DNA of 64,000 nt from contig OX597817.1 of the NCBI GenBank assembly GCA_951406725.2, positions 62,186,001-62,250,000 of the forward strand. Reading direction: 5' to 3'. The notes under the pieces were generated by a model. The model made no database searches, was not told where the DNA came from, and was given only the letters and a program-made list of their open reading frames with translations. Position numbers and translations under genes: made by a program. Shown here piece after piece: positions 11,636 through 64,000 of the stretch (position 1 is the first letter of the stretch; each line of letters opens with the position of its first letter). The DNA comes from Octopus vulgaris (lineage: Eukaryota).

Positions 11636-11710
11636 ACCAAGTACAATGTCATTCGAACAACGTATATGGGAGATGTTATGACGCCGCGCCTATAGACCGT
11701 TACACAACAG
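11636..11710 (+). CDS. Candidate 75-nt phase-1/phase-1 coding exon (xQVQCHSNNVYGRCYDAAPIDRYTT)
   Basis: Acceptor ttctttttgcttttttaag, donor CAG|gtaagt, length divisible by 3, open frame, CpG-containing unique sequence; protein not recognised. Confidence 0.45.
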
Positions 11711-21590: not shown

Positions 21591-22094
21591 ACATACATTA
21601 GGTAGTGGGGTCCAAACAACCATTTTTAAGGAATCTTAATTCCACAGCATGCACAGTTTCAAACAGTATTTTAAATAAAATATATGAAAATTAGGGTTAT
21701 GTGACCTCCTACCGTACCCCTCCCATACACCGTCCACAATTAAATACCTTAATTTTCTATATTAATCATATAATCTATAACGCATACATACTACATTGCT
21801 GATGGATATGAAACATTTGATCACATTTCACTGTAGAAACCTTGTTTGAAACATCTGATGAGTTAAGATAGCAAAGACATTGAGATATAGGATAATTTGT
21901 AGGTAGGTACACCTCCAACATGGTAAAATTACAACTTTTCAATATGTGTAAAATGATTTTTTTTTAGAAAATGTATACATTTGTTAAATTATTTTCTTTT
22001 GTCTTTCAGATTATTTCAGAGCTAAATTGTATTATAATTCTACAAAACTACCTGCATAAATTTAAAATGTAATAATTCAAGTATATAAAATCAT

Positions 22095-22977
22095 AGACTG
22101 GCAATTAGAAGTAAAAACCGTAATTCAGCATTTGGATTTCCTGCAGAATTTTTACAGCAAACACCAATGTTCTGGTTTCTTACCTAACTCACAGTCCCAC
22201 AACAGTTCATTATTGTTCCTGGGAGTTGTCTTGCGCAAGTTTACATATTGAGGTAAAAGGTAAGTGATTGTCCAAGTCAAACACTTTAAAAATTATGATA
22301 AATATTCATTGATCAAGCTATTGATATGCATGTGAGACAGTTTATATTAATTTTATTTTTCTATTGAATTATATAAATACTTGCTAAGTTGTCATGCTAT
22401 TGTATTATAATGATTAATTTATGAATGAATATTCTGTTTACCTTCTAATTGTTTGTTGTTTTCTTCTTTCAGATGCTTCGCATTTGTATGAATAAGGCAG
22501 GCAACTTCTGCTATATTCGTGGTAAAGTGACCTTTGCATTACAGAAGTGCCGTATAACTGATATGCTTAGAAAGACATATCACCTATATTATGGATGCAA
22601 GATTGGCGACCAGGATAGACCTTTTTCCGGCGAACTGTAGTGCGGTTAGTGATGAACAGTGAAATCTTTCACCAAGATATTTCAACCATGGAAAAGCAGT
22701 ACCAGAGCAAATAAAATACATAAATGCTTACCGACTATTCTTCAGCCCATAATAAGCGTCAAGCAAAAATGCAGTGAGTACATACGGACCAGCTTAAAAC
22801 ATGACATATATTGTACATTAATAAAGAAATAATTGTATATAAAATGTCGTGTATTTTTACGCGAATAGCTAGTAAGTATTTTTCATGGTGATATTTAGAT
22901 TCAAGACATGAAAATACATAAGGATTAACTAATCACATTTAAGAAGCAGACTACGTTTCTAAGAGTGTTAACCAATG
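22095..22977 (+). mobile_element. Internally deleted Chapaev3-like element (boundaries approximate)
   Basis: N-terminal MLRICMNKAGNFCYIRG...YHLYYGCKIGDQDRP joined directly to C-terminal AVSDEQ..FHQDISTMEKQYQ...MLTDY; same motifs as 5342-6768. Confidence 0.7.
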
Positions 22978-26902: not shown

Positions 26903-29891
<2,989 letters not shown>

Positions 29892-35227: not shown

Positions 35228-35934
35228 GAGACCCGAATTCTCTTTATCTCTTTTATCACAAACATGTGTGTGTGTGTCTGTATGTGCGTTTGTAAAAAAC
35301 GAAATTATTTGCACATTATATACCTGTAATGAATATCGATATAATATATGGATATATAAACCATATGTTATGAAAATGCTTATACATTATGCATACATAT
35401 ATACAACACACGTACAGATATAAGAAACTACAACGTTTGTATATTATACATGTGCGCACACATGTGTGTAATTGTGTGTGTGTGTGTGTGCGTGTGTGTG
35501 TAATTGTGTGTGTAAATAATTTTATGAACATTTGGTATGGAATTCGTTTTATATTGTTGCAGCTGAATATTCAAAAACTTACTCATTCTGCATTTTATTG
35601 TATATTTCATTACATATTTCATCCGGCCTTGTGCCTAAAATTATATATTTGCATATACTTGTATATATTTCATTGCAGATATCAGCTGTTTGAGAGTAAG
35701 ACAGAATATTAAAGTAAGTTTCCAAAATTTTACAAATGTTGAGAATATAATTCTTTTCGAAGAATCTGCCGTCCATAGATAAGTTGCTTGTGTTCGTTGA
35801 AGAACCCCAAATATTTAAATGTTGTGTTGTACAATACAATATACATAGATGCAGGCATGGCTGAGTGATGAAGAAGGTCGGTGTGTAAACACGTAATGCG
35901 CGGTTCAGTCCTACAACGCAACAGCTGAGGTAAG

Positions 35935-36072
35935 TACATTTTTACATTATTTACATTATTTACATTTGACGAATATTTATCCTCATCTTGTTTGTTTTTA
36001 ACAAAACGTTTCGGTTGATACACCATCCAACCTTTATCAGGTGCCTTGGGGAAATTTCGAACCTGGGTTCCA
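35935..36072 (-). mobile_element. Penelope-like terminal-repeat fragment with hammerhead motif (35999-36045)
   Basis: Minus strand GGCAC CTGATAA A GGTTG gatggtgtat CAACC GAAAC GTT TTGTT: one core change (G8 to A), ACGT helix III. Confidence 0.65.
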
Positions 36073-41573: not shown

Positions 41574-42893
41574 GGATACAGAACGACTCTATCTGCCAAG
41601 AAAAGAGGGAGGCCGTGGTCTTTTGCAACTGGCAATAACAATGAAGATTGCTACAATTGGCCTAGACACCTACCTGAAAAACTCTGAGGACTGGATGTTA
41701 AAACTTGTCTCAAAACATAAAAACAAGAAAGCATCATACTCAGTCACAAAACAGGCAAAGGAATATCTAAGTGAATTCCGAATACAACCAATTTCGGAAT
41801 TAGAGATATACATACAAGAAACAAGCACAGAAAAAGCTAGACGCATGAAAACCCGTGCCAAAACTGCGGCCTTAGATATTCTGAATAATAAATGGCAAGA
41901 AAAACCTCTCTATGGTAAATACCCAAAGAGAGCGAATAATGCAGATATTGACAAAGCCCTGACCCATCAATGGCTAATGGCCTCTGACTTAAAATCTGAA
42001 ACAGAGGGGTTTATCATAGCAGCTCAAGATCAATGCCTACCAACAAGAAACTACCAGGCCAACATATTAAAGAACGGCAGTAGCCCAACATGTCGTGTAT
42101 GCCGACATCAAAATGAAACCATTGACCATGTTGTCTCCAAATACAGTCTTCTAGCGCCTACAGAGCACCTCAACAGGCATGATAGAGCTGCACAATATAT
42201 TCACTGGGTAATTTGCAAAAACCTGGATTTGCCCCATGAAAAAAACTGGTGGGAACACAATCCACCTCCAGTGCTTGAAAATGACCACATCTCACTCCTC
42301 TGGAACTTTACCATTCAAACGGACAGGAAGATAGATGCAAATAGGCCAGACATCATATTGAAAGACTTCAGACAAAGAACATGCCTCCTCATTGATATGA
42401 CTGTCCCAATCGATATAAACGTATCTGTCAAGACCTACCAAAAACTGAGCAAATATAAAGATCTTGAAATAGAAATCAGCAAAATGTGGAAGCTGAAGAC
42501 TAAAACAATACCTGTTGTCATAGGTGCCCTGGGAATGATAGCGAAAGGGACTGATTGCTACCTAACTCAGATACCAGGAAACCCCAAAATGGCAGAAATT
42601 CAAAAGATAGTGCTCATGGGAACTGCTCATATCATACGCAAAATACTCTCTATGTAATCCCAAGGTTTAAAACAAACTTTTTTTTTATTTAATTTTTTTT
42701 TTAAAATTTTATTTTTATGTATTAGACATTCACTAGTACAACACCAAAAAGAAGAAAAAAACAAAAAAAAACAAATATATGGCACAGAACTTTCAACCTG
42801 TTGTCTCTTGAGGTCCCTGGGTGAGACTCGGAGCCAACTTGTACAGACATAAAGCAAAAGACAAACATAGAACAATAATAATAATAATAATAA
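41572..42893 (+). mobile_element. Young 5'-truncated R4/Dong-like retroelement; open 344-aa C-terminal ORF (41623-42657) with zinc knuckle and restriction-like endonuclease
   Basis: RLYLPRKEGGRGL, ETEGFIIAAQDQ, CRVC..ETIDHVVS, RHD, NRPDII...LIDMTVP.D...K..KY.DL..EI...W; (TAA)n on both sides. Confidence 0.92.
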
Positions 42894-43503
42894 CTCCAGT
42901 ACTTGAAAATGACCACATCTCACTCCTCTGGAACTTCACCATTCAAACTGACAGGAAGATAGATGCAAATAAGCCAGACATCATATTGAAAGACTTCAGA
43001 CAAAGAACATGCCTCCTCATTGATATGACTGTCCCAATCGATATAAACGTATCTGTCAAGACCTACCAAAAACTGAGCAAATATAAAGATCTTGAAATAG
43101 AAATCAGCAAAATGTGGAAGCTGAAGACTAAAACAATACCTGTTGTCATAGGTGCCCTGGGAATGATAGCGAAAGGGACTGATTGCTACCTAACTCAGAT
43201 ACCAGGAAACCCCAAAATGACAGAAATTCAAAAGATAGTGCTCATGGGAACTGCTCATATCATACGCAAAATACTCTCTATGTAATCCCAAGGTTTAAAA
43301 CAAACTTTTTATTTATTTATTTATTTATCTATTTATTATTATTTTTTATGTATTAGACATTCACTAGTACAACACCAAAAAAACAAAACGCCAAACATAT
43401 GGCACAGAACTTCCAACCTGTTGTCTCTTGAGGTCTCTGGGTGAGACTTGGAGCCAACTTGTACAGACATAAAGCAAAAGTCAAACATAGAATAATAATA
43501 ATG
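42894..43503 (+). mobile_element. Second, shorter 5'-truncated copy of the same R4/Dong-like family in the first copy's tail
   Basis: Near-identical to 42266-42893 in the coding part (about 5 substitutions seen); more differences in the 3' UTR. Confidence 0.92.
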
Positions 43504-55006: not shown

Positions 55007-55418
55007 GGACTGGTTAAAAGTTTGAATCATATGAACAATAAATAAAAAATATAACTCATTATCGGAAGCACATGATTGACACATACACACACATTAATGC
55101 ACACATATGCACTCACACATACACCAATGCTCACATATATACTCACACACATACGCGAATACATATCGAATAAGTCATTTAGTTTTTCTTCAGTTTGCGC
55201 TTGAATGTCCGAAGAGGCGGACATCTTTTCTATTCGCTTTAAATAATATGAGGAGTGAAATCGATCTGTTACTTAGTATATATTTGTGTATTTGTGTGTG
55301 CAAGAGAGAGTTTGTGAGTTTGTATGCGTATGTGTGTGCGTGTGTCAATCAAATGTTTCCACTTAATGTGTCGCTTTTCTAGTTATTGTCCATACGATTC
55401 AGATTTTTAATCAGGCCA
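55007..55418. mobile_element. Old foldback/MITE-like element with diverged long inverted arms
   Basis: ggactggttaaaagtttgaatcatatgaacaataa...tgattgacaca vs the reverse complement of tgtgtcaatca...ttattgtccatacgattcagatttttaatcaggcc. Confidence 0.6.
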
Positions 55419-55684
55419 TTTTTGCTCATATTAGGACTTTCCCTGTTCAGTTGTCTTCTTTAACTTTATTCACTTAATGTAAATTATCTTTAATGTAAAT
55501 TTACAATTTTACAGAAATACGAACACGACATAAATAAAAAGAAAAGATGCCTGTTGATTTTAAGCTTAGCAATAAATTTGTTAATAGAAGTACAAAGTCT
55601 TGTGAGAGGCAATGACATTCAATTAAATGAAGATGTAAAGTAGATATTTATTTTTTCCGTCTGTATCTAATGTCCGTCTACACT

Positions 55685-55812
55685 ACTTACCTTCTGTCTG
55701 GTTTTATCAGCTAAGCGGATTGGTACACCACTACGACCTCGCTTATTCATGAGTGGATGTAGAGAAAATTTGCAGCGTACTTACCTGAAATAAAAAGAAA
55801 GAACAATCAGAA
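55685..55812 (-). promoter_or_regulatory. Candidate recursive splice site with associated 94-nt RS-exon (55784-55691)
   Basis: Minus strand ttctgattgttctttctttttatttcAG|GTAAGT at 55786/55784; downstream donor AAG|GTAAGT at 55691/55690; stops in all three frames. Confidence 0.6.
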
Positions 55813-63695: not shown

Positions 63696-64000
63696 GTGAT
63701 GATTATATTGCAAATTTAGGCAGAAGACCAGTAATTTATATCGTACGCTTAAGTCAATATTCACCAATCTCAGTACTTCAGCAATGTATGATATTAACCT
63801 TGGTAGGAGGACAGGCAAACTTGACTTCTGCGAAATTTGAATTCAGAACGTTAACAATGCTATCAGCACATCATTTCATTTACCATCATAGAACTGGAAA
63901 GAAAATTACAAGGAGTGGTCTTTAAGGGGTGGCGCGGCCATCTGAAAATAGCAATAAAATTTCACTCCGTTAAAACCTACTGTTTAAAATTGGAAGGATA

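Follow-up and report, generated by a model that had tools for sequence, protein, structure and literature searches.

The 64,000-nt stretch of the Octopus vulgaris genome analyzed here (hereafter the window) lies wholly, from position 1 to position 64000, inside intron 1 of a TMEM272-like gene on the minus strand. TMEM272-like is the name used by the source records of its mollusc relatives, and any function read from it is putative. The first-pass annotation had placed the window within a giant minus-strand intron, and the intron does span 503,023 nt, from the end of exon 1 (G000:C4:62664363, outside the window) to the start of exon 2 (C4:62161339, 24.7 kb to the left of the window), in a gene whose coding exons cover about 650 kb. 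The splice site of interest is on the sense strand of this intron, 422,578 nt from its 5' end and 80,445 nt from its 3' end. The upstream exon, exon 1, encodes 83 residues identical to the N-terminus of octopus proteins; the peptide is the same in the models of O. sinensis (LOC115211023) and O. bimaculoides (LOC106876369), and 49-54% identical to chiton, abalone, and limpet proteins. No family was matched in a Pfam search of the TMEM272-like protein or in an Rfam search of the 64-kb window. Two paralogues, at G000:C6:37225405-37225836 and C26:21087594-21088043, are 42-43% identical over the membrane-spanning last exon.

Other features are also present in the window. Three AG/GTAAGT donors lie on the plus strand (11636-11710, 22010-22259, and a donor at 35928-35935), two of them with a good acceptor upstream, at distances of 75 and 250 nt, and these may be exons of a transcript that runs antisense within the intron. 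Long reading frames at 27079-29886 (minus strand) and 41575-43282 (plus strand) have motifs that suggest broken endonuclease and reverse transcriptase pieces of LINE-type retrotransposons.

Layout and strength of the splice site

On the minus strand, the site begins with a CTGAT (55806-55810), a putative branch point whose A lies 23 nt before the junction, followed by a pyrimidine tract (55805-55787) and an AG (55786-55785), which together form the CAG acceptor (55785-55805) used in two RNA-like contigs described below. Directly after the acceptor stands a GTAAGT (55779-55784), presumably serving as a donor, and this juxtaposition of acceptor and donor follows the pattern of recursive splice sites (Yn-YAG/GTRAGT). 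The same GTAAGT opens a 94-nt segment (55691-55784), the putative RS-exon, which is closed by a second donor, AAG/GTAAGT (GTAAGT part at 55685-55690), that is joined to exon 2 in O. vulgaris protein models; a downstream donor defining a short exon is another feature of recursive sites. In the frame of exon 1, the segment runs into a stop after 13 codons (TAA, 55745-55743). An AATAAA (55647-55652), 38 nt past the end of the segment, bears only on the possibility of a terminal exon, which is considered further below.

The tandem layout had been reported in the first-pass annotation, and all of its elements were reproduced, from the CTGAT through the second AAG/GTAAGT, as were the stops in all three frames of the segment and its position in unique DNA (a stretch of 371 nt matches the genome at one place). 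What had been overlooked is the ATG at 55750, the only one in the 94-nt segment, which opens a frame of 20 codons (55691-55750) that stays open to the second donor and is in frame with exon 2. The earlier description of the segment as a cryptic, poison RS-exon therefore holds as far as the 94 nt and their stops are concerned, whereas a purely cryptic or purely poison nature does not fit an exon that has such an ATG, at which three public O. vulgaris models begin, and a donor of its own that outscores the regenerated one.

Loose motif counts in a single window carry no significance by themselves. For example, AGGTAAGT occurs five times in the window against 1.93 expected, a count reached in eight of 100 shuffles, and Y8-N-YAG/GTRAG, with one mismatch allowed, is found once where 0.32 would be expected, which 29 of 100 shuffles also reach. 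The scores of the two splice signals are more distinctive. Of all acceptor-donor pairs on the window's minus strand, the 55784 acceptor and the 55690 donor form the strongest, and, using rough, self-made matrices with thresholds fixed near the score of the site when that score was already known, the combination of an acceptor of at least 9 with a donor of at least 7 turned up once in 12 Mb of order-5 Markov sequence, and in the intron once on the sense strand and not at all on the other strand of 584 kb. A second site of like strength was not found in intron 1, where a few weaker candidates are present.

Junctions in RNA-like contigs

Twenty-four sequencing runs were listed, six of them with the whole or part of the stretch and none of these recorded as RNA, their RNA nature being guessed; contigs of four of the 24 runs were aligned to 811 nt around the site. 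More than a trace of the stretch was present in three of 21 RNA-like runs and next to none in the other 18, a near-absence that is no evidence in either direction.

Contig X1 matches 55785-55602 with zero differences and carries 17 extra letters upstream of the acceptor. The single genomic match of these 17 letters is the end of exon 1, abutting its GTAAGT donor, so that the loose end maps 422.6 kb away on the same genomic contig and the same strand. The contig, which comes from an RNA-like run, thus joins exon 1 to 55784, the upstream junction that the first-pass annotation had anticipated, and it continues unspliced through the second donor (55690-55685). Spliced upstream and unspliced downstream, X1 has the shape of a recursive intermediate.

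Contig X2, from a separate study under a separate organism label, covers 55784-55713, matching 72 of 72 nt of the segment, and a long loose end starts at that acceptor too. Here the loose end consists of the end of exon 1 followed by 19 letters before the acceptor, pointing to a route through a microexon. An exact genome search with the loose-end motif gave no match; a match with one mismatch was found afterwards inside the intron, 23.3 kb upstream of the site, at a genomic microexon of 19 nt (L003; C4:62265092-62265074, minus strand) that has a strong acceptor and a weak donor and shifts the frame. The junction expected of a first step, from an upstream exon into the site, is therefore present in two contigs from two studies, and the acceptor is in use by two routes.

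These contigs are shallow, with depths of 7.5 (X1) and 4.2 (X2) and one contig per run. Among the other contigs, X3 (55259-55470) is intronic, lies further downstream, and has no junction, while X6 covers 55469-55748, agrees nearly as well with the flanking intron, and gives no clean coverage of the acceptor. Among the contigs of the four runs over the 811 nt, none joins the segment to exon 2.

Excess of the fused motif in the genome

The first-pass annotation had suggested that fused acceptor-donor motifs should be enriched. Genome-wide, Y12-N-CAG/GTAAGT has 89 matches, whereas its single-base neighbors, the three alternatives at each donor position taken together, have 102 (+5), 52 (+4), 27 (+2), and 56 (+6). 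After base composition, the 89 sites are in 3.3- to 6.8-fold excess, which bears out the enrichment with single-base neighbors and same-strand clustering as the comparators. The reversed pattern has three matches against 89, although its sequence context differs and it is not the main control. The site in the window has purines in its tract, fails the strict 12-pyrimidine pattern, and is not among the 89.

The motifs are also clustered by strand. Ten adjacent pairs among the 89 lie within 500 kb of each other (1.4 expected), nine of them on the same strand, and in the independent set of 65 TAG-type sites nine have a CAG-type site no more than 500 kb away (2.1 expected), in every case on the same strand, compared with one of 79 control sites; these expectations presume uniform spacing, and donors after pyrimidine-rich exon ends may add matches. 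Fourteen of 15 clusters are single-stranded, and one C26 pair with identical motif text may be a duplication. The 89 and 65 sites were located by motif. Strand skew was also tried as a proxy for the direction of transcription and rejected, as the host intron has no skew and the motif loci showed no difference from the controls.

For downstream donors, the first 30 of the 89 sites were set against as many controls, the first of the 102. Within 15-300 nt, donors at thresholds of 5, 6, and 7 followed 5 vs. 3, 2 vs. 2, and 0 vs. 1 of 30, respectively, without an excess at the sites. Within 20-120 nt, a range picked after that negative result, a donor of at least 3 follows 14 of 30 sites, compared with four of 30 among the controls and 73 of 750 among background bins; the range agrees with the distance of under 100 nt given for flies (PMC6224609). 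A branch-point motif is found at 15 of 30 sites and 10 of 30 controls, which is no clear difference. A downstream donor of at least 7 is found at none of the 30 other motif loci, and the site in the window is therefore atypical.

Several loci stand out by themselves. A span of 337 kb (G000:C13:4468665-4805401, plus strand) holds five strict motifs on the same strand at intervals of 37-120 kb, which may form a ladder of recursive sites within a single giant gene, and smaller same-strand clusters are found at C9:104.96-105.62 Mb and C13:57.42-57.80 Mb. One motif locus (L069) and two control loci (L107 and L108) belong to one repeat family, with about 94% identity across 620 nt, and the repeat is therefore able to supply such motifs.

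Protein models with and without the segment

In six protein models (P0002, P0003, P0004, P0010, P0011, and P0013) exon 1 is joined to exon 2 and the segment is absent, and a more distant assembled protein (P0005) has the same exon 1-exon 2 layout. The O. sinensis and O. bimaculoides models, both from RefSeq, skip the segment, as does an Argonauta model; its inclusion is therefore not constitutive, as the recursive reading of the first-pass annotation entailed.

By contrast, all three O. vulgaris models found (P0009, P0014, and P0016, all public) include the 3' part of the segment: they start at the ATG at 55750 and are spliced from the second donor to exon 2, and they are without the 83-residue exon 1 kept in chiton, abalone, and limpet. 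Protein searches and cluster lists gave no O. vulgaris model starting at exon 1. Either the segment is in real messages at times, or the first exon was mis-chosen by gene prediction; in the latter case the segment could have been taken as the first exon because exon 1 is too distant. According to one O. vulgaris annotation paper, ab initio predictions were combined with aligned transcripts (PMC10700109). It is plausible that these models were truncated by intron-length limits, where both the pipeline of origin and the limits are assumed, and it is suggested that, for this gene, the first exon of the public O. vulgaris models is wrong. The missing exon 1 may be one case of a wider failure of annotation where introns approach or exceed 500 kb. 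Nevertheless, the segment may sometimes be included in O. vulgaris messages.

Proposed splicing route and alternative explanations

Because the signal is joined to exon 1 in assembled RNA-like contigs, removal of the intron likely takes two steps, and we propose that intron 1 of the octopus TMEM272-like gene probably contains a recursive splice site whose RS-exon is included on occasion. In the first step, the one seen in RNA-like contigs, exon 1 would be spliced to 55784 and 422.6 kb removed, probably because the strong acceptor and the downstream donor define the 94-nt exon. In the second step, the regenerated donor would be spliced to exon 2, removing the 94 nt together with the last 80 kb of the intron, and the product would be the normal protein of 321-342 amino acids. 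If instead the downstream donor won, the 94 nt would be retained, the frame of exon 1 would run for 96 codons, and nonsense-mediated decay of the message is predicted. Exon definition, use of the regenerated donor, and decay of the included form are steps that we infer.

The donor sequences are consistent with such a competition. Joining exon 1 to 55784 restores nine donor letters identical to the genomic donor of exon 1 itself, and the rough matrix scores this regenerated donor at 6.6, against 8.1 for the downstream donor, and at 4.2 when the microexon precedes it. These scores fit a donor-competition model in which some inclusion is predicted, and more of it after the 19-nt microexon, because the regenerated donor is then weaker. 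Inclusion would bring a stop after 13 more codons when exon 1 precedes the segment and after 18 when the microexon does; the premature stop lies 52 nt before the exon end with further introns downstream, which is typical of poison (NMD) exons. In the fully cryptic type, the regenerated donor is stronger than the exon's own, and here it is not (6.6 vs. 8.1); the usual donor order of fully skipped RS-exons is the reverse of that found here, but donor strength alone does not decide the outcome (PMC8605326). The donor order therefore counts against "fully cryptic," not against "RS-exon." Overall, the site has four features of a recursive splice site and lacks one, the fully cryptic donor order.

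Alternatively, though this is unlikely, the segment might be an ordinary poison cassette exon that starts with GTAAGT by coincidence and whose regenerated donor is unused, being either included, with a premature stop and decay, or skipped by splicing exon 1 to exon 2 over 503 kb. Such an exon would suit the strongest acceptor-donor pair on this strand of the window, a downstream donor no weaker than the regenerated one, and the inclusion annotated in O. vulgaris, and X1 fits it as well, as a transcript whose downstream intron was not yet removed. Furthermore, human donor-regenerating exons are often kept, with the exon junction complex repressing re-splicing (PMC6224609). However, a full six-letter donor at the start of an exon is rare by chance, and the juxtaposition of acceptor and donor is both enriched and strand-clustered in the genome.

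A coding alternative start is improbable. In this case the ATG at 55750 would begin a protein of 258-273 amino acids without the conserved exon 1 peptide, reached through an unseen internal promoter or by restart after a stop 5 nt downstream of the ATG. Such a start would account for P0009, P0014, and P0016, which begin here with exon 2 joined in frame, and for the frame that the sole ATG of the segment keeps open to the donor. Yet both junction contigs have exon 1 and its own ATGs upstream, the N-terminus was not found in other species (three hits of four candidates, and cluster lists), and shortening of the model by the assumed intron-length limits is plausible.

It is very improbable that the segment belongs to a cryptic last exon, in which both donors are ignored and cleavage after the AATAAA at 55652 leaves a peptide of 96 residues. 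X1 would agree with this, as it passes the second donor and stops 45 nt beyond the AATAAA, at 55602, but no poly(A) loose end is seen at 55602 among the rows shown, the intronic contig X3 lies further downstream at 55259-55470, no short octopus protein consisting of exon 1 only was found (four hits of five candidates), and two perfect donors would be left unexplained. Finally, although low depth, one contig per run, and more than a trace in just three of 21 RNA-like runs would suit rare mis-splicing to a strong chance acceptor, and although template switching could mimic the X1 junction because G-GTAAGT is common to the exon 1 boundary, noise or artefact of this kind is scarcely credible for an acceptor met in two studies, with an X2 junction that shares only GT with the upstream boundary, at a site of a strength seen once in 12 Mb of simulated sequence.

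Returning to the recursive site with an occasionally included RS-exon, a bolder version is conceivable in which donor competition acts as a protein switch and the octopus relies on far more than 100 recursive sites to process its giant genes, which we consider improbable as a whole. If it were true, re-splicing would yield the full-length membrane protein, whereas the stop brought by inclusion would lead to restart at the ATG 5 nt before it and thus to a 258-amino-acid form without the conserved N-terminal peptide.

Comparison with known recursive splicing systems

Recursive splicing has been described in insects and vertebrates, and for sea urchin there is evidence from motifs (PMC2773006). 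We found no report of it for octopus, squid, or any other cephalopod or mollusc in the open-access literature, in line with the remark in the first-pass annotation that it was not known to have been characterized in cephalopods. The word "recursive" is absent from the main text of an octopus transcriptome paper (PMC9699675), in which libraries from ribo-depleted total RNA are described, and PMC8797185 and PMC8997533 are unrelated to molluscan recursive splicing. The octopus site is likely a known mechanism in a lineage without a report found, an expected extension rather than a new mechanism. A junction-supported site together with a strand-clustered motif excess would nonetheless add the third big bilaterian branch to those with recursive splicing. 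As an invertebrate with vertebrate-sized introns, the octopus makes it testable whether such introns are handled in a fly-like manner, with many cryptic sites, or in a vertebrate-like manner, with few, and about 150 candidate positions are offered here for existing total-RNA data.

At the level of the motif, the excess resembles that of RP-sites in the long introns of insects and sea urchin, where the fused motif is likewise several-fold in excess (PMC2773006). It amounts to 4- to 22-fold in four of five invertebrates, and far above 10 in mosquito, compared with 3.3- to 6.8-fold in octopus. The two estimates differ in design, as the published one set the sense against the antisense strand of introns and had no mollusc, whereas ours used single-base neighbors and same-strand clustering.

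At the level of the single site, the octopus locus is similar to the Drosophila ratchet points of Ubx, kuz, and Bx (PMC8605326) in its tandem acceptor and donor, very long intron, and nearby second donor, as well as in a junction from the upstream exon into the site and in an out-of-frame exon, which in flies is missing from the canonical mRNA and here from the O. sinensis, O. bimaculoides, and Argonauta models. It differs in the length of the exon (94 nt vs. about 50 nt typical in flies), in the exon's own donor being equal to or stronger than the regenerated one, and in a first step of 423 kb (PMC8605326). The vertebrate RS-exons and their "binary splicing switch" (PMC5126111, PMC6224609) offer a second parallel: the competition of two donors sets inclusion, inclusion leads to a premature stop, as predicted in octopus, and how strong the regenerated donor is depends on the exon before it, a role that here would fall to exon 1 or the microexon. 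Unlike the vertebrate exons, the octopus exon contains an ATG whose frame continues into exon 2, and for octopus the competition, the decay, and any control by the exon junction complex are proposed by analogy. Judged from these likenesses, the octopus site likely works as fly ratchet points and vertebrate RS-exons do.
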